Source of the DNA: Dehalococcoidia bacterium
GTDB taxonomy: Bacteria > Chloroflexota > Dehalococcoidia > Lucifugimonadales > UBA3495
Reading direction: 5' to 3'
Length of the DNA stretch: 64,000 nucleotides
Assembly (NCBI GenBank): GCA_965216065.1
Contig: CBDCFB010000001.1
Coordinates: 1,442,218 to 1,506,217 of the forward strand
The notes under the pieces are model-generated. The model was not told the DNA's origin and did not search any database. It worked only from the letters and a program-made list of their open reading frames with translations. Positions 495 through 63,260 of the stretch are shown here, piece by piece. Both the position numbers and the translations under genes were made by a program. Position 1 is the stretch's first letter; the number at the start of each line of letters is the position of its first letter.

Positions 495-628
495 CTCGTT
501 TCTCCTGTTCTTCCTTGGCATGGATGTTGCGGGAACATGTTAAGTTCGCGGTTCATGACGCCGCAATCCCCCAATGGCCGTTGTTCCCGCCGAACGCGAT
601 TAGCCACCATCGAGGGAATTGAGCACAG

Positions 629-784
629 CAGGGTCTTTTAGTCTTCCGGTACGAATAACACAACTTCCGTCATTCCCGTGGAAGCGGGAATCCAGTGCTC
701 GGCTACCTGTGGCCGTGTTGTAGGCAATTGGCCCTCTGGATTCCCGCGTTCGCGGGAATGACGGGTGAAAACTAAAAGACCCTG
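629..784. mobile_element. MITE-like element type A (REP-hairpin core), 156 bp
   Basis: Perfect 14-bp terminal inverted repeats CAGGGTCTTTTAGT (629..642) and ACTAAAAGACCCTG (771..784). The core carries two inverted copies of the GTCATTCCCG-N-CGGGAATCCAG hairpin. Flanked by TTGAGCACAG and TTGAGCACAC. Confidence 0.75.
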
Positions 785-794
785 TTGAGCACAC

Positions 795-1010
795 AGGACG
801 ATTGCGTTTTAACCAAATCAGCTTTGCCGCTGTCCCGTCATTCCCGCGAAAGCGGGAATCCAGGGTTTTCGTATTGTTGGCTGTCTCCGGCTGGCTAACC
901 TGACGGTTCTCCGATGGGCGCAGAACACTGGAATTTCCGGCCATTGGATTCCCGCTTTCGCGGGAATGACGGTGTGAACGGCTGCGAATAACTAAAGCGC
1001 GATTGCCCTG
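795..1010. mobile_element. MITE-like element type B (CAGGnCnATCGCG termini), about 216 bp
   Basis: Ends are AGGACGATTGCG... and ...GCGCGATTGCCCTG. A reverse-complement relative sits at 13848..14107 and another at 34287..34481. Contains two GTCATTCCCGCGAAAGCGGGAATCC hairpins. Flanked by TTGAGCACAC and TTGAGGACAG. Confidence 0.7.
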
Positions 1011-1140
1011 TTGAGGACAGGCGCTGCGTTGACAATACAGGCGCGGATGGTGTATCAATCTACTGCTGACATGCATCTACCTTAGGCAAGCTAGGAGACC
1101 GCAATGTAGGCGGCTCTGCCCCAGCTGTAGGAGGAGGAAA

Positions 1141-13847: not shown

Positions 13848-14107
13848 CAGGGCAATCGCGCTGTAGTTATTCGCAGCCGTTCACACCGTCATTACCGCTA
13901 AACATGTCCTCGACTCGATCGGGGAGCGGGAATCCAGTGGCTGGAAATTCCAGTGTTCTGCGCTCATCGGAGAACCGCCAGCCTAGCCCACCGGAGACAG
14001 CCAACAACGCGAAAACCTTGGATTCCCGCTTTCGCGGGAATGACGGTGGAGGGGCGGGAATGACGGGACAGCGCCATAGCTGGTTCGGTTAAAACACGAT
14101 TGCACTG
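13848..14107. mobile_element. MITE-like element type B, 260 bp, inside the arg operon
   Basis: Ends are CAGGGCAATCGCGCTG... and ...ACACGATTGCACTG. It is the reverse complement of the 795..1010 element. Flanks GTATAAACCA and GCGCAAACCA match at 7 of 10 positions. Confidence 0.7.
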
Positions 14108-15076: not shown

Positions 15077-16297
15077 CTAGGTGGTATAGGCGCTGTTGAT
15101 AACCACGTATTCTTCGGTCAGGTCGCAGCCCCATGCGGTGGCGTCGGCGTCGCCCAGGTTCAGGGCGATGCGGAAAGTGACCTCGTCTCCCCGCATGAGG
15201 GCCACCACGGCGTCCCGGTGGAAGGGAATCGGTTTGCCCGCCTCCATGATGCAGACGCCGTTGATGAATAGGTCAATTTTCTCCTCGACGGCCTCGGCCT
15301 GGCTGCGTCCCAGGGCGGCCAGCAGGCGGCCCCAGTTGGGGTCGGCGCCGTAGACGGCCGACTTGACCAGCAGCGACGATGCTATCGTCCGTGCGGCGGT
15401 GCGTGCGTCCTCGCTGGTGCGGGCGCCGGTGACCTCCACAACCAGCAGGTGGGTTGCGCCCTCGCCGTCGCGGGCCAGCTTACGAGTCAGCTGTACGCAG
15501 CACTCGAGCAAGCCTGCCTTGAACGCCTCTGCTTCCGGGGTTCCGGCGGTGATGGTCGCGTTGCCTGCGGCCCCGTTGGCAAGTACCACCAGCGAATCAT
15601 TGGTGCTGCTGTCGCCGTCGATCGTGAGCATGTTCAGCGAGTAGTCCGCCACTTCCGGCAGCATGGTGCGGAGCAGGCCCTGGTCGATGGCCGCGTCCGT
15701 GGCCACGAAGCACAGCATGGTGGCCATGTTCGGGTGTATCATCCCGGAACCCTTGGCCACGCCGCCGATGTGCACGTCGGTGCCGCCGATATCTACGGTG
15801 ACACCCACCTCCTTGGGATGGGTGTCCGTGGTCATCATGGCGCGGGCCAACTCGTTGCCGCCGGTCTCCGACAATGTGGTTTCATCCACGCCGGACTTGA
15901 TCAGGGTCATGGGCAACTCGACGCCGATGATGCCGGTGCTGAACACCAGCACCTCCTCCGGCTTGACCCCCATGGCTGCGGAGGCCAGGACGGCCATTTC
16001 CTTTGCGTCGATATAGCCCTGCTCGCCCACACCGGCGTTGGCGATTCCCGAATTCACCACCAGGCCGCGAATGGCATGTCCCCCGGCCAGGGTCTCGCGG
16101 TTGACGGTTACCGACGGCGAAACGATGCTGCTCCTGGTGAACACCCCGGCAGCGGCGCAGGGAGTGTCGGACAGCAGCATACCCACGTCCATCTTGTCGT
16201 CCGAGTAGGTCTTGATGCCGGCGTAGGTGCCGCCTGACCGGAATCCACGAGCGGTGGTGATTGTGCCGCCGTCAACTTGGTTGATCGCGCCGGGCAT
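15077..16297 (-). CDS. argJ: bifunctional glutamate N-acetyltransferase / amino-acid acetyltransferase
   Basis: ORF 15077..16450 trimmed to ATG 16297 (MPGAINQVDGG...). Self-cleavage site PNMATMLCFVATDA is present. Confidence 0.9.
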   Translation of the reverse strand: MPGAINQVDGGTITTARGFRSGGTYAGIKTYSDDKMDVGMLLSDTPCAAAGVFTRSSIVSPSVTVNRETLAGGHAIRGLVVNSGIANAGVGEQGYIDAKEMAVLASAAMGVKPEEVLVFSTGIIGVELPMTLIKSGVDETTLSETGGNELARAMMTTDTHPKEVGVTVDIGGTDVHIGGVAKGSGMIHPNMATMLCFVATDAAIDQGLLRTMLPEVADYSLNMLTIDGDSSTNDSLVVLANGAAGNATITAGTPEAEAFKAGLLECCVQLTRKLARDGEGATHLLVVEVTGARTSEDARTAARTIASSLLVKSAVYGADPNWGRLLAALGRSQAEAVEEKIDLFINGVCIMEAGKPIPFHRDAVVALMRGDEVTFRIALNLGDADATAWGCDLTEEYVVINSAYTT

Positions 16298-16506: not shown

Positions 16507-17787
16507 ATGGCCAATGTGCGCGCGTTTCGAGGTTGGCGTTACAACCCCGCCATGGTTGAAGACATGGCGGCAGTGCTCTGTCCGCCCTACGACATGATTA
16601 CCCCATTGATTCAGCAGGCGCTGATGGACCGGCACCCCCTGAATGTAATCAACCTGGAGGCGGGCGAGGGCCTGGATTGGGCATCCGATCCGGCGGACCG
16701 TTACAAGGAAACCGCCGGGCGCTTCGAGGAGTGGCTCAAGGAAGGCGTGCTGCAGCAGGACGATGAGCCAGCCTATTACCTGATGCGCCACGGCTTTACG
16801 CTTGGAGGCCAGCAGCGGTCACGTCTGGGTCTGATAGCGTGCGTTGGGATCGAGGATTACGACACACGGCAGGTACTACCCCACGAGTTCACCGAGGCGC
16901 CGGTGGTGCGCGACCGCGTGAAGCTGATGGGATCGGTCTCTGCGAACATCAGCCCCATCATGTCGATCTACAGGGACGCAGACAACGAACTGGCGGCCCT
17001 GTTCGAGCAGGTCATGGCCCAGGATCCCGAGGTGGACGCCAGGGATGAGTTCGGCTCGGATGCCACCATGTGGCGCATTGCGGACCCGGAAAGCGTGACC
17101 GCTATCAGCCGGTTCTTCTCAACCCGGCCGGTATTCCTGGCAGACGGGCATCACCGGTACGAGGCGTCGCGGCACTACCGGATGGCCCGGCAGGCTGAGG
17201 GGGCGGATTCGTCGTCGAGTGCACACAACTATGTGATGATGACGCTGATCGCATTCGACGACCCCGGCCTCGTTGTGCTGCCGTATCATCGCAATCTGAG
17301 CGGCCTGAACGACTGGCAGCTGGCGAGGGTGAAGGAACGGCTGAACGAGGTGTTCGAGACTGAACCTATGGAAGGACGTTCAGCCGAAGAGATCGTGGCG
17401 CTGGTGGAGGAGCGGGGGCGCTCCGGGCGGGTGATGGCCGCGCTGGGGCCCGATGGAGCACAGCTGCTCACGCTGCGCCCATCTGCCATCGGCGACGACT
17501 GGGGCGCGATGGCGGTGTCGGAAGCGTGGGTGCTGGAGGAGAGAATCCTCCGCCCGGAGCTGGGCGAGGCCACATGGCACCACCTGGGTTTCCTGCACGA
17601 CCACGATGAGGCGGCAGAGGGTGTGGCCGATGGGTCGCTGCAGATGGCCTTCCTGATGAAGCCCTTCCCCATGGACGCATTCGAGGACATCGTCGGGCAG
17701 GGGCAGCGGCTGCCGCGAAAGTCCACCTTCTTCTACCCCAAGCTGCCAACGGGGCTGGTCATCAACCGGATAGACGGGGAGATCTAG
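16507..17787 (+). CDS. DUF1015 family protein
   Basis: 426 aa with MANVRAFRGWRYNP... and FLADGHHRYEAS, typical of DUF1015. Confidence 0.75.
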   Translation: MANVRAFRGWRYNPAMVEDMAAVLCPPYDMITPLIQQALMDRHPLNVINLEAGEGLDWASDPADRYKETAGRFEEWLKEGVLQQDDEPAYYLMRHGFTLGGQQRSRLGLIACVGIEDYDTRQVLPHEFTEAPVVRDRVKLMGSVSANISPIMSIYRDADNELAALFEQVMAQDPEVDARDEFGSDATMWRIADPESVTAISRFFSTRPVFLADGHHRYEASRHYRMARQAEGADSSSSAHNYVMMTLIAFDDPGLVVLPYHRNLSGLNDWQLARVKERLNEVFETEPMEGRSAEEIVALVEERGRSGRVMAALGPDGAQLLTLRPSAIGDDWGAMAVSEAWVLEERILRPELGEATWHHLGFLHDHDEAAEGVADGSLQMAFLMKPFPMDAFEDIVGQGQRLPRKSTFFYPKLPTGLVINRIDGEI

Positions 17788-17845
17788 CAGCAGGCGGGAG
17801 ATAGTGTCTGAGTGACAGGCATTCCAGGTGCCTGAGGTGCCAAGT

Positions 17846-18982
17846 ATGACCGGCCTGATTGCAGTTTTGTTCACCTTTGCTTTCATGCTGGGCGCCTGCA
17901 TGGAAGAATCCGGACAGCCTGGCTCCGGCAGCGGAACTCAGACCGTCAAGACTCCCGACGCGGCCGTTACGGGTACGGTCACCTACAGGGAGCGACTGGC
18001 ACTCACCGATGGGGCCAGGCTCATCGTCGAACTGCGAGATGTGTCTCTGGCCGATGCCGCCGCTCCTCTCATCGCCAGCCAGACGATCGAGAACCCGGGA
18101 CAGGTCCCCATCGGGTTCAGGGTCGAATACGATAGCAAAGACATCAACCCTCGAAACACATACTCCGTGAGCGCCCGCATCGTCGAAAGAGACGGGCGGC
18201 TGGCCTTCACCAACGACACGGCCTACGAGGTGATAACACGGGGCAATCCAAGCAGAGTCGACATGCTGCTGGTGCTGGTGCAACCCCCACCGGAAGCGGT
18301 CGAGGAAGGAAAAGACTGGCGCACCTGGGTGGAGACCCCTGCCCGGATTGCCCGGGCGAACCTGATGAGAAGCGAACGGGAACCCCTGATCCGAGTCCAC
18401 TACTACCAGTCTACTATTGAAGGTTGCGCCCGCCGAGGGAACGAGTCCCTGGAATTGGAAGGGACCGACTTCATGGTGAGCGTAACCCTGATTCAGCCGC
18501 CTTCCACACCATGGGCCATTCCCTGCGAGGATGAGGTCGTGGAGTTGGACGCGGTGTTTCCGCTCGAGGAAGCGCTGAAGCCAGGCCAGACTTACCGGGT
18601 CGTCGTCAACGGCTGGCCGTTCGCTGCTTTCACCGTACCCGACGAGGAGTTCCACATCTCCGCCATAGCCGAATCCCACATCCTGCGAGCCGGGGTGGAA
18701 GAGGTGGAGGAGGAACCCGCGAATTATGAACTGACCGTGGTCTCATCAAGGCCTGTCGGGAGCAGTTGCTCCCGCTTCGACGGGTACGAGACGCGCCGGC
18801 AGCAGGACCGCCGGATCGATGTCAGCATCACCCACCACCAGGTCACCGCTTCCGGGATCGCCTGCACCAAGGATGTCCCGTTGGACGAGACCATTGTGCC
18901 CCTGGGGTCCTATTTCGAGGCCGGAGAAGAGTACGAGGTGGTCGTCAATTCGGACACCACAGTGTCATTCCTGGCCCGGTAA
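17846..18982 (+). CDS. lipoprotein with YbaY-like N-terminal domain
   Basis: Signal peptide plus lipobox FMLGAC. The segment VTGTVTYRERLALTDGARLIVELRDVSLADA resembles YbaY. Confidence 0.6.
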   Translation: MTGLIAVLFTFAFMLGACMEESGQPGSGSGTQTVKTPDAAVTGTVTYRERLALTDGARLIVELRDVSLADAAAPLIASQTIENPGQVPIGFRVEYDSKDINPRNTYSVSARIVERDGRLAFTNDTAYEVITRGNPSRVDMLLVLVQPPPEAVEEGKDWRTWVETPARIARANLMRSEREPLIRVHYYQSTIEGCARRGNESLELEGTDFMVSVTLIQPPSTPWAIPCEDEVVELDAVFPLEEALKPGQTYRVVVNGWPFAAFTVPDEEFHISAIAESHILRAGVEEVEEEPANYELTVVSSRPVGSSCSRFDGYETRRQQDRRIDVSITHHQVTASGIACTKDVPLDETIVPLGSYFEAGEEYEVVVNSDTTVSFLAR

Positions 18983-25766: not shown

Positions 25767-25890
25767 TAGGGTTTTTTAGTTGTCGACTAACCCGTTGGTC
25801 CTGAGCCTGTCGAAGGGCCGTCCGCCCATGGTTCGACAAGCTCGCCACGAACGGACTCGCAAGGTTGCCATAGACAACTAAAAGACCCTG
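25767..25890. mobile_element. MITE-like element type A' (LSNH core), degenerate left end
   Basis: Ends are TAGGGTTTTTTAGT... and ...ACTAAAAGACCCTG. The core is homologous to 34153..34276 and 63118..63260. Flanks match at 7 of 10 positions. Confidence 0.65.
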
Positions 25891-26589: not shown

Positions 26590-27480
26590 TCACCGGTCGT
26601 CGGTGGGCAGCCGCGTGGCGACGCCACCCATGCCGGGCGGAGGCCAGCTGCCGGTCAGGTAGTCGTACAGGTTGGCGGCGCTGATGCGCATCACCATGGG
26701 AGCCATGCCCTCCTGCTCCACATCCATGGGGTAGCGGTCGGTCATCGCGGTCAGGCTGGGCACTGCCTCTTCCTTAGTCATGCCCCGGTTGATGGCGTCC
26801 TGCACGTAGTCCTTCCAATCGACGATGAACTCGCCCTGCTCGTCTAGGTAGTCCTTGCCGCACAACGCTCCGTGGCCAGGAACGAAAATGTTTTCGTCCA
26901 GCCGGCGCAGCGACTCCAGTGCCACCAGCCACAGGTCGGGGTCAGCCTCGTGGAGCCAGGTTTGCACGCCATGGAATATGTTGTCGCTGGTGAAGACGAC
27001 ACCTTCCTCCTTGATCACCACCGCCGCTTGGTACAGGGTGTGTCCGGGCATGTGTATCATCTCGAAGGTGTGGTCGCCGACGCGCAAGGTCATCTCGTCT
27101 TGGAAGGTGATGACCGGCGGATTGGCCCGGTAGCCCTCCAGCAACGCAGGCTCCTCCGGGCCGAAGGTGCACACGCGCGCGGCGTGCTCAGCCATGTCGG
27201 TGTTCAGAATGCGGGTCCGCACCCCCTCGTGGGCGATGACCGGCGCGTCGAAGAAGGCATTACCGGTCCAGTGGTCGCCATGGGGCTCGGTGTTGATGAT
27301 GTAGCGTAGTCCTGGGCCGGTCGAAGGGCTGCGCTTCTCGATCTCGGCCTTCAGCCACATGGCGGTGCTGGGCTTGTGGGGACTGTCGATCATTACTACG
27401 CCGTCGGAGGTGGTGACGAACCCGAAGTTGCAGCCGCGGACCTCGGTTTCCACCCATACGTTGCTGGTCAATTGCTTCAT
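26590..27480 (-). CDS. MBL-fold metallo-hydrolase
   Basis: ORF trimmed to ATG 27480 (MKQLTSNVWVE...). Metal motifs EPHGDHW and HMPGHT. Confidence 0.8.
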   Translation of the reverse strand: MKQLTSNVWVETEVRGCNFGFVTTSDGVVMIDSPHKPSTAMWLKAEIEKRSPSTGPGLRYIINTEPHGDHWTGNAFFDAPVIAHEGVRTRILNTDMAEHAARVCTFGPEEPALLEGYRANPPVITFQDEMTLRVGDHTFEMIHMPGHTLYQAAVVIKEEGVVFTSDNIFHGVQTWLHEADPDLWLVALESLRRLDENIFVPGHGALCGKDYLDEQGEFIVDWKDYVQDAINRGMTKEEAVPSLTAMTDRYPMDVEQEGMAPMVMRISAANLYDYLTGSWPPPGMGGVATRLPTDDR

Positions 27481-28164: not shown

Positions 28165-28430
28165 CAGGGTAATCGCGTCTGGAAGGCTGGAATCTCATTT
28201 TGCTGTCATTTGCTCCTTGCCAAGCTTGGCGCTCCTTCTCAAACATTAGTTCTATATGTATAACGGATGGCAAACAGAACCCGACTGACATCCCTGTGGG
28301 TCTCTTGAAACAGCGGCCAGCCCGGAATGTCCAGAAATGACCGGGAAAACGAAAAAATCAGCCCCTGCAAACCGGCAATGTCGGCTCATCCGACCCAACC
28401 TGCTGAGTTGCTGAATTCAAGACGCGATTG
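28165..28430. mobile_element. element with type-B termini but unrelated AT-richer core
   Basis: The left end CAGGGTAATCGCGTCT and right end AGACGCGATTG are inverted. TCCTTGGTATCAACG is directly repeated on both sides (28150..28164 and 28431..28445). Confidence 0.5.
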
Positions 28431-28533
28431 TCCTTGGTATCAACGGCCAACCCAATCGATGAAGCCCACCCCTGATATAATTTCGCCAGGATACGGACTT
28501 GGACTTCGGACCCGGACTCCTTGGAGGTCTTAC

Positions 28534-29954: not shown

Positions 29955-30187
29955 CTGCACTGAGAAAATCTCTCGAAACTCGTTTGCCCCACAAGCCGTC
30001 GTTCCTGCGAAAGAACTTCGCCCCCGGCTCGATCGGGGAGCGGGAATCCGCGGCTTCCGTCCTTCTGACCGCCCTTAACCGCCAGGGCTGATTAGGCCTC
30101 ATCCGGCAACCGTCAGGCCTAATTTTCGGCCACTGGATTCCCGGCTATGCGGGAATGACGGGTTGATTTCGCTGCATAACTGTCCTG
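29955..30187. repeat. REP/type-B-related repeat cluster (approximate bounds)
   Basis: CTCGATCGGGGAGCGGGAATCC and GGATTCCCGGCTATGCGGGAATGACGG hairpins. The right end ...CATAACTGTCCTG resembles a type-B terminus. Confidence 0.5.
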
Positions 30188-32570: not shown

Positions 32571-34049
32571 CTATTCGTCCTCGAGGAACTCCCGGACGAA
32601 GGCGGTGGCCGGTTCCTTGTCGTACAGGCTGTTCAGCAGGACGATGTTGCGGTAGGCGTCGCCCTGGAAGAAGCGCTCGTAGAGAATCTGCCGCTGGCCG
32701 AAGGCGCTGCAGCAGGTGTCCCACGCCAGCCGGAACAGGCGTATGCGGTCCTCCGCCGTGGCGGTGTCGGTGTCGAGATAGCCGGCCAGTTCTTCGGACA
32801 TCGGGCCTTTCAGATCGGCCTCCGTCGGGAGGGCCATCAGGCTGCTGGAGCCCATGAGCTGCAGGATCTCTCCCATGCGCGGGTACATCCTGATGAACAG
32901 GTGCCGGGCCACCATCAGCGGCATCTCCGCTGGACACATCACGCCCCATTCGTCGGGGGCGGCTTCGGCTTCGGCGGCACGGAGCAGAGCCTTGGTGGTC
33001 TCCAGGTTCTCGATGATTTCCGCCGTCATCTGAAGCATCTGGGGCTGCTGGCCTGAGCCGAGGACCTGCTGCATCAGGTTGGCCAAGCCCAGGACGAACT
33101 CCACCTTGACCACATTCTTGGTCACCACCTGGTGGCCGGAGTGCAGGTACTGGTGGGTGTGTCGGGACATATTGTTGCACCGGTCGGGGTCGCCCAGGAG
33201 GAACACCCGCTCCCAGGGAACGAACACGTTGTCGAAGAACGCCAGTGCATCCATTTCCTCGAAGCGCGAGCCCAGCGGATGATCGAACCTGGAGCGACCC
33301 AGGTCGAAGCTCTCACGGCACAGGAACTTCAGTCCAGGCGCGTCGCAGGGCAGCGCGAACGCAAATGAGGTGCGACCCGGGGCTCCGGTAGGCAGACGGT
33401 GCGACCGGGCCGGGTAGACCGCGATCTCGTCGGCAATGGGCAGGGTGGCAAGCAGCCTGGCGCCGTGGACGATGATCCCGGAATCTGTCTCCTTGACCAC
33501 GGAGAGAGCAATGTCGGTGTTGTCGTGGAGGATCTGTTCCGTGGGGACCCGGCTGCGCTGGAGGTTGACCAGGGTGTGGGTCAGGACAAGGTCTTCCTCG
33601 CGCACCTTCTCGTAGTAGTTCCAGATGTTCTGCTTGAACTCCGGGCGGTCCTCGGCAAAGTAGTCCCCGGCGTTGGCCATTGCCATCAGGCTGACATTCA
33701 GGAAGTCGGGCGTCCGGCCCATCATCCCGCAGGATACCTGGGCCCACCGGCGCATCATCCCCCGCCGGGCATCCAGATCAGCGGTGCTCCTGGGAGTGAT
33801 GAAGGACAGACCCACCTGCTCGCCGGTGGTGGGCGACGCATAGGTCATCTCGGGGCCCACGGCCCCCGGGTTTAACTGGCGCTGCGCTGCCGAAGGGTGC
33901 TGGAGGTCGTACAGGCGGGCCACCGTCTTGACGCCTCCACTCAGCCCGGGGTGCGTGGTCGGGTCGTCGATGCGCTCACCTCGCATGTACAAGGCCGGCG
34001 GGCGCTCGCGAAGCCTCTGGATGTACTGCTGCCCGTTCCTGGCGCCCAT
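32571..34049 (-). CDS. 4-hydroxyphenylacetate 3-monooxygenase oxygenase-component (HpaB) family protein
   Basis: 492 aa with MGARNGQQYIQRLRERPPALYMRGERIDD..., an HpaB/4-hydroxybutyryl-CoA dehydratase family layout. Confidence 0.8.
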   Translation of the reverse strand: MGARNGQQYIQRLRERPPALYMRGERIDDPTTHPGLSGGVKTVARLYDLQHPSAAQRQLNPGAVGPEMTYASPTTGEQVGLSFITPRSTADLDARRGMMRRWAQVSCGMMGRTPDFLNVSLMAMANAGDYFAEDRPEFKQNIWNYYEKVREEDLVLTHTLVNLQRSRVPTEQILHDNTDIALSVVKETDSGIIVHGARLLATLPIADEIAVYPARSHRLPTGAPGRTSFAFALPCDAPGLKFLCRESFDLGRSRFDHPLGSRFEEMDALAFFDNVFVPWERVFLLGDPDRCNNMSRHTHQYLHSGHQVVTKNVVKVEFVLGLANLMQQVLGSGQQPQMLQMTAEIIENLETTKALLRAAEAEAAPDEWGVMCPAEMPLMVARHLFIRMYPRMGEILQLMGSSSLMALPTEADLKGPMSEELAGYLDTDTATAEDRIRLFRLAWDTCCSAFGQRQILYERFFQGDAYRNIVLLNSLYDKEPATAFVREFLEDE

Positions 34050-34152
34050 GACTAGTCCTCCTCTGTCGTTTCCCCTTACTATTTTGGCTTACTATTTTGG
34101 CCGAAGACCCTCGGATTTTACAGTGCGTCTCTCAGTGCGTCTCTCCCGGAGG

Positions 34153-34276
34153 CAGGGTCTTTTAGTTTTCTATGGGAACCTTGCGAATCCGTTCGTGGTG
34201 AGTTCGTCGAACCATGAACGGACGGCCCTTCGACGGGCTCAGGACCAACGGATTTGTCGACAACTAAAAGATCCTG
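34153..34276. mobile_element. MITE-like element type A' (LSNH core), 124 bp
   Basis: Ends are CAGGGTCTTTTAGT... and ...ACTAAAAGATCCTG. Flanked by perfect CTCCCGGAGG at 34143..34152 and 34277..34286. Confidence 0.8.
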
Positions 34277-34286
34277 CTCCCGGAGG

Positions 34287-34481
34287 CAGGGCAATCGCGT
34301 CTTAACATTCGGCACACTAATCGGGCAGGCATGGCTGCAAAAATTCCCGTTATCCCTGCGAATGCAGGAATCCAGAGGTCAGTTGCCAGTGAATCACGAC
34401 TTGCCTCGAGGCCCTTGGAATCCCGCTTTCGCGGGAATGACGGATTATGGGGCCCTCAGCATTTGGGACGCGATGGTCCTG
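34287..34481. mobile_element. MITE-like element type B, 195 bp
   Basis: Ends are CAGGGCAATCGCGTC... and ...GACGCGATGGTCCTG, with REP hairpins inside. Flanked by CTCCCGGAGG at 34277..34286 and 34482..34491. Confidence 0.8.
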
Positions 34482-34755
34482 CTCCCGGAGGCCCCGGCGC
34501 TGTCGGGAATTCCGGCTGTGTGTGGGCCCTGGATTTCTGCAGGGCTACCGGGCTTTTGCCGTCGTCCGTTCCGGCCAGTCGCAAGCTGAATCTACTTGAC
34601 ACTCCCAGAGGGTTGTGATAATTTTCACTCGATTTTTGGCCCGCCACCCGACTAGCGGGATTTCGGGCCGCTAATTTTGTCAGGAACCGGTCGACAGGCA
34701 GGCCGGGACAAATCGGCACCGCTCCGGTTTACTCAGGGCAGGATGACGGCAGTCC

Positions 34756-35046
34756 ATGGACCCCAAAGCGTTAAACAGCACCGACTGGCAAAACATCCAC
34801 CTCTTCCTTCAGTGGTTCTGGATTTATTTCCCACTGGTTGTTGTATTTGCTATCACCATGCTCACTGCTCACGCGCTCATTCCGTCGGCTGTGTCGACGG
34901 GCCACCTGCCCCAAAGCGTCGCCCGGCTCAAGTGGCCTCTCACCGGTTTTGCCCTGGTCATTGCCGCGGTCGCGATCGTAATCCTGGTTCTGGGAATCAA
35001 TCAGACCCTTGACGTGAGGAATTTCTGGAACCGGCTGCTTATCTAA
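34756..35046 (+). CDS. small membrane protein (2 predicted TM helices)
   Basis: 96 aa with hydrophobic stretches FLQWFWIYFPLVVVFAITMLTA and GFALVIAAVAIVILVLGI. Lies upstream of actA. Confidence 0.5.
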   Translation: MDPKALNSTDWQNIHLFLQWFWIYFPLVVVFAITMLTAHALIPSAVSTGHLPQSVARLKWPLTGFALVIAAVAIVILVLGINQTLDVRNFWNRLLI

Positions 35047-55020: not shown

Positions 55021-55184
55021 AGAACTATCTCAAAACGACCATGGTGTCGTGCATTTGAACGGCTACCGCGTAGAACCTCTGGATTCCTGCTTTCGCAGGA
55101 ATGACGGTGAGGGACGCGGCGAGTCTTGAGATAGTCTCGTATTCCCTCTCCCGGAGGGAGAGGGTGAGGGTGAGGGTGAGGGCG
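55021..55184. repeat. composite repeat: AACTATCTCAAAAC-type end, REP hairpin (55081..55105), GEG hairpin (55142..55184)
   Basis: GGATTCCTGCTTTCGCAGGAATGACGG and TTCCCTCTCCCGGAGGGAGAGGGTGAGGGTGAGGGTGAGGGCG. Confidence 0.65.
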
Positions 55185-62535: not shown

Positions 62536-63096
62536 ATGGCCAGAATTCCAACAGCCAGCAGGGACACTGTACCCCAGGACCAAGCGGAGGCCTTTGACGA
62601 TTACGTGGCCGAGCGAGGCGGTATCCCGGAGACCGGCCCCTTGTCAGTCATGCTGCATGTGCCGGAGCTGATCAAGCGCGGCGAGCACCTGCGCGCTTAC
62701 CTGCGGGGAGGGGAGTCCAGCCTGCCCGCCAACATCAGGGAGTTGGGAATGCTGGTAGCGGCACGAGAGATGGACTGCCAGTTCATCTGGAACGCTCACG
62801 CCGCCATGGGACGCCAGTCGGGCCTGAGCGACGACCTGGTTGACCGCCTGCGGGACAAAAAGGAACTCACCGGGCTTTCGCCGGCGGAATCAGCCGTAAT
62901 CGAATACGGACGCGAGTTCTTCCGCACTCACCGGGTGAGCCAGGAGAACTTCGACAACGCCATGGCCCAGTTCGGTACCCAAGGGCTGGTGGAGCTCACC
63001 ACGCTCATGGGCTACTACGCCTGCCTGGCCTTCAACATCAACGCCTTCGAGGTGGGCCTTCCTGCTGAGACAACCGAAGTTCCCCTTCCGGTTTAG
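62536..63096 (+). CDS. carboxymuconolactone decarboxylase family protein
   Basis: GGAGGA RBS before ATG 62536. CMD-type motif REMDCQFIWNAH. Confidence 0.75.
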   Translation: MARIPTASRDTVPQDQAEAFDDYVAERGGIPETGPLSVMLHVPELIKRGEHLRAYLRGGESSLPANIRELGMLVAAREMDCQFIWNAHAAMGRQSGLSDDLVDRLRDKKELTGLSPAESAVIEYGREFFRTHRVSQENFDNAMAQFGTQGLVELTTLMGYYACLAFNINAFEVGLPAETTEVPLPV

Positions 63097-63117: not shown

Positions 63118-63260
63118 CAGGGTCTTTTAGTTGTCGAATAACCCGTGGTTGTCGAATAACCCGTTGGTCCTGAGCCTGTCGAAGGGCCGTCCCTTCATGG
63201 TTCGACAAGCTCACCACGAACGGACTTGCTAAAGTTGCCATGGAAGACTAAAAGGCCCTG
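63118..63260. mobile_element. MITE-like element type A' (LSNH core), 143 bp, with internal 19-bp duplication
   Basis: Ends are CAGGGTCTTTTAGT... and ...ACTAAAAGGCCCTG. Perfect 10-bp direct repeat CCGCTCCGTC at 63108..63117 and 63261..63270. Confidence 0.85.

Follow-up and report, generated by a model that had tools for sequence, protein, structure and literature searches.

Two neighboring MITEs of CAGG-type families share a triplicated 10-bp target, probably through successive ISAs1-type insertions, in a Dehalococcoidia genome

Why should a single 10-bp sequence, CTCCCGGAGG, occur three times at positions 34121-34491 of the stretch of DNA analyzed here (64 kb, referred to throughout as the window), each time abutting one or both of two different small repeats? 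We consider it very probable that two ISAs1-type MITEs of different families inserted sequentially and share one duplicated target; that the two events were sequential is something we infer. The features of the locus, including the two divergent genes that enclose it, are as follows.

32571..34049, minus strand: HpaB-like 4-hydroxyphenylacetate 3-monooxygenase gene, with its start codon 93 bp from target copy 1
34121..34144, no strand: perfect tandem duplication of CAGTGCGTCTCT (34121-34132 + 34133-34144), single-copy in relatives
34143..34152, no strand: target-site duplication copy 1, CTCCCGGAGG
34153..34276, plus strand: MITE A3, 124 bp, ISAs1-type family A, with inverted repeats at 34153-34167 and 34262-34276
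34277..34286, no strand: target-site duplication copy 2, CTCCCGGAGG, common to A and B
34287..34481, plus strand: MITE B4, 195 bp, CAGG-type family B, with inverted repeats at 34287-34301 and 34467-34481
34482..34491, no strand: target-site duplication copy 3, CTCCCGGAGG
34756..35046, plus strand: gene for a 96-aa ORF, with its start codon 264 bp from target copy 3

The three copies of the 10-mer are identical, bracket A and B as the first-pass annotation of this DNA had described, and lie exactly flush with the inverted repeats of both elements. In the whole window, CTCCCGGAGG occurs four times (0.46 expected), and the fourth copy, at 55148, is within an unrelated CCCTCTCCCGGAGGGAGAGGG / GGGAGAGGG-type hairpin repeat. 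The order of the locus is CAGTGCGTCTCT CAGTGCGTCTCT-CCCGGAGG / CAGGGTCTTTTAGT...ACTAAAAGATCCTG / CTCCCGGAGG / CAGGGCAATCGCGTC...GACGCGATGGTCCTG / CTCCCGGAGG, and the final CT of the CAGTGCGTCTCT duplication (also reported by that annotation, and indeed present) overlaps target copy 1. The terminal inverted repeats of both elements are imperfect and begin with CAGGG. Those of A are CAGGGTCTTTTAGTT and CAGGATCTTTTAGTT (14/15 match), and those of B are CAGGGCAATCGCGTC and CAGGACCATCGCGTC (13/15 match). The core of A is an 'SNHE' hairpin repeat, whose translation as VVSSSNHERTALRRAQDQR, noted previously, can be read directly from the sequence, and the entire element folds as one long hairpin (DNA z = -4.55). 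The core of B consists of two inverted GGAATCCCGC..GCGGGAATGACGG hairpins, and this element folds no better than its shuffles. Both A and B are small and non-coding, and the ORFs that cross them are all spurious.

The pair adds 339 bp between the two divergent genes, and the 96-aa ORF is the first in a divergent cluster whose products are molybdopterin, NrfD, and ActD proteins. We found no evidence for a function of the MITE pair; the near-palindromic target and the T-rich end of A give two weak terminator-like hairpin scores, at or below chance level. Separately, the most conserved part of the intergenic region, with invariant columns among relatives whose HpaB is 88-93% identical, comprises the sequence TTGACA...TGATAAT (window 34596-34625) and its surroundings. 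This stretch probably serves the divergent operon as promoter or operator; a consensus scan left it uncalled owing to the spacer length.

What did the site look like before the insertions, and is the arrangement real? Six independent metagenome assemblies have the same arrangement next to an identical HpaB-like neighbor (one of them, L005, is partial and begins inside B), and thus it is not an assembly artefact. The order of the 96-aa ORF and the opposite-strand HpaB gene is kept in relatives with HpaB 93%, 92%, 89%, and 88% identical. In two of these relatives (L108, HpaB 92%, and L109, 89%), the orthologous site is without A and B. When A, B, and two of the 10-mer copies are removed from the window, the remaining sequence aligns colinearly with L108 and L109, and a join with neither element present would read GTCTCTCCCGGAGGCCCCGG. 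The 12-bp CAGTGCGTCTCT duplication is missing in all relatives compared; it is lineage-specific, and no link to transposition was established. In relatives L107 and L114 (HpaB 93%), a different CAGG-type element of about 130 bp (L107 3791-3920, equivalent to L114 9791-9920) is located 2 bp from the window's insertion point. This element has ends CAGAGCGATTGCAGGGTG / CTGGGCGATTGCAGTGTG, a decayed duplication (GGCTTTCGGG / GCTACCCGGG), and no resident neighbor. An empty site was also found for the other A+B tandem of the window (619-1020; see below): relative L138 has a single target copy there, in the context ...CAAC TTGAGGCCG CCGCCGCGTTGACAAG.... From the empty-site controls for that locus, the P0245 relatives were left out (they have another upstream gene), and the P0241 contig was too short.

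The first-pass annotation also took the insertions to be recent. This holds insofar as the elements are missing from sister lineages, but both are fixed in all same-species contigs sampled. Indeed, both tandems are fixed within the species (the junction of the locus under study was found in six contigs, and that of the 619-1020 locus in nine), and among same-species contigs (six at 34121-34491) there was no presence/absence variant and no A-only or B-only state. The sole variation near the pair is a 13-bp tandem duplication at 34075-34100, 43 bp from the MITEs (CTTACTATTTTGG twice; GCCAAAATAGTAA on the alignment strand). Four of the seven sequences (the window, L001, L004, and L005) have both copies, and L002, L003, and L006 have one. 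The 13-bp duplication and the fixed 12-bp duplication lie within 70 bp, and either replication slippage or an excision footprint may have given rise to them. When perfect tandem duplications were counted by length over the 788 kb of related loci, there were 14 of 9 bp, 11 of 10 bp, and 2-5 at each length from 11 to 15 bp, a smooth fall in which the target-duplication length does not clearly stand out.

Other insertion differences are evident elsewhere in these contigs. At L002 5613-5761 there is a MITE of about 147 bp from another family (ends AACCAATACCAAGGTG / AACTGAAGCCAAGGTG), with a TA duplication as in IS630/Tc1-like elements, which both the window (38213/38214) and L001 are without. This element is direct evidence for recent MITE mobility in the population. 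L001 contains an insertion of about 870 bp at 17327-18194 (window about 26761-26778) that is lacking in the window and in L002, and that truncates a Lactamase_B-fold gene (231 aa in L001 vs. 296 aa in L002). The insertion has duplicated flanks of about 18 bp and apparently includes two degenerate transposase C-terminal coding copies, possibly IS5-like.

Are the 10-mers parts of the repeats, or are they duplicated target DNA? The window contains four family-A copies (ends CAGGGTCTTTTAGT) and four family-B copies (ends CAGGGCAATCGCG). Besides A3 and B4, these are as follows.

619..1020, no strand: first A+B tandem, TTGAGCACAG / A1 629-784 / TTGAGCACA / B1 794-1010 / TTGAGGACAG
13848..14107, no strand: B2, solo family B, decayed duplication (7/10)
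25767..25890, no strand: A2, solo family A, decayed duplication (7/10)
28165..28435, no strand: B3, solo family B, perfect duplication GGTATCAACG, core differs
63118..63260, no strand: A4, solo family A, perfect duplication CCGCTCCGTC

The eight copies have six different flanking repeats. Because these repeats differ from copy to copy, the 10-mers are target-site duplications and not parts of the elements. The orientation of B1 is opposite to that of B4. What lies between family-A ends varies: A1 contains REP-like GGGAATGACGG hairpins, A2-A4 contain the 'SNHE' hairpin, and copies from other genomes (L018 3959-4102; L039 6188-6457) contain GGGAGAGGG or CCCCCTTTCG...GGGGG hairpins. The REP-like core hairpins are also found outside A/B elements (30121-30166 and 55067-55112). 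The MITEs are mosaics around other dispersed hairpin repeats.

Several smaller observations concern the same elements. A possible CAGG-type element is located 30 bp upstream of A4 (window 62941-63087; ends CAGGAGAACTTCGACAAC / AAGGGGAACTTCGGTTGT, flanks CCGGGTGAGC / CCGGTTTAGC), although it is a weak candidate, with an inverted repeat of 11/15. Within B3 (window 28165-28435), a TTCCAGCC-like microsatellite is expanded by 36 bp in L001 (about 15890-15925); the orthologous alignment of B3 is too diverged to read. At 619-628, the target copy to the left of A1 varies within the species, being TTGAGCACAG or TTGAGCAAG (L117, L120, and L123 compared).

To which transposons do these elements belong? 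The pattern CAGGGTCTTTTAGTTNTC was sought in 185,579 species genomes and gave at least 100 matches; most of the matches listed are MITE-sized copies in Dehalococcoidia MAGs, and 8-kb windows around the matches listed served as comparison loci. A de novo search for a CAGG...CCTG inverted repeat with a 9-12-bp duplication identified 57 elements in 788 kb and none in shuffled sequence. About 45 further copies in other genomes each have their own flanking duplication. The length of the duplication is mostly 10 bp, in about one-sixth of cases 9 bp, and rarely 11-12 bp, and its sequence is always different.

In three of the loci (L049, L054, and L116), elements of 1256-1259 bp are bounded by the identical 18-bp end of A, and the full-length element of L116 is flanked by a perfect 10-bp duplication, CTTTTGTACG. 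For the reading frames of the full-length elements, NCBIfam gives the model 'ISAs1 family transposase' (NF033564; E = 3e-38 and 1e-23), and Pfam gives the domains DDE_Tnp_1_assoc and DDE_Tnp_1. The ISAs1 family is defined by a 14-22-bp inverted repeat beginning CAGGG and a 10-bp direct repeat, and a 10-bp repeat was also found upon experimental transposition of a Frankia member (PMC11946415). Another ISAs1 member, ISArsp11, combines a 10-bp repeat with the end CAGGGCTGATGCAAAGTCG (PMC6305408), an end similar to the CAGGACGATTGCAAAGTC ends that a third type of MITE has in our loci. We therefore regard family A firmly as an ISAs1 derivative. Family B is assigned to ISAs1 more provisionally, the grounds being its CAGGG tip, its 10-bp duplication, its co-behavior with A, and the likeness of related ends to that of ISArsp11. 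A generic search for CAGG..CCTG elements of 1.0-1.8 kb returned the three family-A elements and noise, and no full-length partner with B ends. Neither the 64-kb window nor the Dehalococcoidia loci retrieved contained an ISAs1 transposase gene; those loci have only a 54-aa remnant (L029). Overall, the boundaries of the elements, the differing duplications, the empty sites, and the transposase-encoding relative bear out the proposal of the first-pass annotation that two MITEs inserted into one target.

It should be noted that the transposase of these full-length elements is encoded in two overlapping pieces in L116 (6001-7136), L054 (10-1193), and L049 (563-1698), all three being split after ...FRSP.APF/L. 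The N-terminal ORF has about 230-265 aa and the second ORF about 130-140 aa, the latter in the -1 frame according to a hand-reading of L116. Dozens of distinct homologues of the N-terminal ORF (56-99% identity) stop at the same split point, and ISAs1 proteins further removed (39-44% identity) are each encoded by one ORF of 370-411 aa. In the A-end clade, the split therefore looks less like decay than like a conserved frameshift or an enzyme in two parts. Among the matches listed, contigs assigned to Phycisphaerales, Planctomycetota, and Acidobacteriaceae bins likewise have the identical 18-bp end, either at a contig end or as part of a full-length element. Either a single ISAs1 lineage has spread across phyla, or short contigs with the element were mis-binned, and it is important to note that MAG binning may misplace contigs with full-length elements.

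Is the sharing of a target peculiar to this locus? Element ends were located in all unrelated loci using five 15-mer patterns (A-, B-, and C-type families) with up to 3 mismatches in 15, a tolerance at which about one 'end' in four may have matched by chance, and spacing was taken from the end of one element to the start of the next (0-150 bp). The spacing is 9 bp in four pairs, 10 bp in six, and 11 bp in one; five other pairs are spaced at 84, 103 (twice), 147, and 150 bp. Three pairs at 28 bp, all from one locus, came from a biased pattern scan and are excluded. In other words, 11 of the 16 neighboring pairs in 788 kb of related loci are 9-11 bp apart, and with the two window cases excluded as well, 9 of 14 pairs fall within a 3-bp bin out of 151 (binomial estimate about 1e-12). 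A metagenome scan for an A-end/B-start junction with a gap of 0-30 nt gave three matches, which represent one orthologous locus with a 28-nt gap. The family combinations A-B, B-A, C-A, A-A, and C-B all occur, and L039 has three consecutive elements with related spacers. In the tandems of L015 and L051, the outer flanks do not match the spacer. The copies at the 619-1020 locus are 10, 9, and 10 bp long (TTGAGCACAG / TTGAGCACA / TTGAGGACA+G), lengths that fit insertion of A first, then of B with a 9-bp stagger at the tip of A, or else a one-base deletion.

No nested insertions were detected in the 788-kb scan, although neutral positions are about 100 times as numerous in a MITE body of 120-270 bp as in the two duplications that flank it. 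Neither did we find a target consensus in 35 reconstructed sites with their 12-bp flanks (at most 0.3 bit per position). Given the spacing peak, the lack of nesting, and the lack of a consensus, neither a build-up of insertions in safe places nor a target defined by its sequence explains the pattern well. Target re-use by these elements is recurrent and looks mechanistic.

How might such exact re-use come about? An ISAs1-type DDE transposase, presumably acting in trans, would recognize the CAGGG-tipped inverted repeats. The target would be cut with a 10-bp stagger, and repair would duplicate CTCCCGGAGG. An element of the second family would then enter exactly one copy of the 10-mer and re-duplicate it, giving 10mer-A-10mer-B-10mer. 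The resident element may itself guide this second event: transposase bound, or nicking, at the resident CCCTG/target junction would set one strand transfer at that phosphodiester, and the other strand transfer would occur 9-10 bp away, reproducing the exact register. We favor such end guidance as the reason for target re-use, while giving it slightly less than an even chance. The generalization that ISAs1-type transposases may pick targets via a resident CAGGG end, with unrelated MITE families that have just this tip in common building arrays whose spacers are all copies of one original 10-bp target, is put forward tentatively and with somewhat less assurance. To our knowledge, end-guided insertion with full target re-duplication has no description in the ISAs1 family, the mechanism of which is essentially unstudied.

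The alternatives differ in what they make of the resident element and of the 10-mer. The one to which we give most weight, possible though on balance doubtful, is a structural hot spot, that is, a site or local DNA shape preferred by ISAs1-type transposases that was simply hit again, with the resident element irrelevant. It would account for the CAGG-type element 2 bp from the same position in L107 and L114, where there is no resident neighbor, and for the behavior of the Frankia ISAs1 member, which was found at the same pyrF site in 3/4 independent mutants (PMC11946415). However, the 35 targets with their 12-bp flanks have no sequence consensus, and after a first insertion each target copy retains just one of its original flanks. 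Moreover, the L107 insertion is offset by 2 bp and thus inexact, and the short usable intergenic region makes such a near-coincidence not very improbable. Could harmless insertions instead have piled up in a permissive region with no targeting at all? The intergenic regions of this lineage are indeed crowded with small repeats that vary between relatives, but chance accumulation is very unlikely to place 11/16 neighboring pairs at exactly 9-11 bp, or to leave the MITE bodies, with their roughly hundredfold excess of neutral positions, free of nested insertions.

Two further readings dispense with separate insertions at this site, and we consider both extremely improbable. The first-pass annotation had itself raised the possibility that the 10-mers are conserved parts of one larger repeat; in this case A-10mer-B would have been copied as a block, as might be supposed from the adjacency of A and B at two loci in one 64-kb window. 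Yet no larger unit containing the 10-mer was seen elsewhere, the A-10mer-B junction sequence occurs at its own locus only, and solo A and solo B copies carry their own duplications. In addition, the 10-mers of the two tandems differ (TTGAGCACA(G) vs. CTCCCGGAGG), the B elements are in opposite orientations, and the inner 10-mer equals the outer ones, which is not expected of a composite that moved. Each tandem was thus built in place by two insertions. The other reading is that A and B are not transposons, but REP/BIME-like palindromes or recombination-site arrays, with the 10-mers as spacer repeats. The REP-like hairpins of the cores, which also occur outside A/B elements, speak for it; against it are the terminal inverted repeats with flanking duplications that vary between copies, the empty sites of L108, L109, and L138, the transposase-encoding relative with the same ends, and the absence of any Rfam family matching the region.

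Identifying A and B as ISAs1-type MITEs places two abundant repeat families of uncultured Dehalococcoidia-like bacteria in a defined transposon family. It also provides clean boundaries for annotation of elements that are otherwise called as spurious ORFs (e.g., 'SNHE...' peptides). After the separation of closely related species, the MITEs remodeled promoter-bearing DNA that lies between divergent genes, and the exact sharing of a non-specific 10-bp duplication is a testable clue to target choice in ISAs1, about which almost nothing is known.

In comparison with the ISAs1 family itself, whose members include ISArsp11 and Frankia Francci3_2330/2941, A and B are alike in having inverted repeats of about 15-18 bp that start with CAGGG and a duplication of 10 bp (occasionally 9 bp), and an NF033564 transposase is encoded by a relative of 1.26 kb whose 18-bp end is exactly that of A. 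They differ in being 124 and 195 bp long and non-coding, with cores that are unrelated hairpin repeats rather than a deleted transposase. Also, ISAs1 members have been described as single-ORF elements, whereas the transposase of the A-end clade consists of two overlapping reading frames. Like other bacterial MITEs (Correia elements, Tn3-derived TIMEs, and cyanobacterial MaeMITEs), A and B are small, multi-copy, intergenic, and hairpin-folding, with inverted repeats, target duplications, and mosaic cores. Unlike those, their parent is ISAs1, and they make a long duplication (10 bp) that has no sequence specificity, so that its sharing by neighbors is not trivial, as it would be for TA-targeting elements. 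The literature searched contained nothing on ISAs1-derived MITEs, Dehalococcoidia MITEs, or tandem MITEs that share a target duplication.

A resident end is the preferred landing place in IS30 targeting of inverted repeats, in IS911 insertion beside end-like sequences, and in targeted conservative insertion of IS26. The abutted elements that result resemble the A/B tandems, although end guidance is a proposal here, and the A/B neighbors are from different MITE families with little in common beyond the CAGGG tip. Targeted insertion of IS26 creates no new duplication, and IS30 dimers have a 2-bp spacer; in contrast, A and B make a full new duplication, and their spacer has the length of that duplication. 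The IS231/IS4 family, from a related DDE transposase superfamily, has 10-12-bp duplications, strong site preferences, and hot-spot targeting, but IS231 has a recognizable target consensus, and elements of the A/B type have none in 35 sites. REP/BIME repeats lack terminal inverted repeats and target duplications, whereas complete A and B elements have both, and only their cores are REP-like. Overall, these are elements of an ordinary kind, MITE insertions with target duplications, that belong to previously undescribed families; what is new is the assignment to ISAs1, the proof from empty sites, and the recurrent sharing of a duplication by neighbors.
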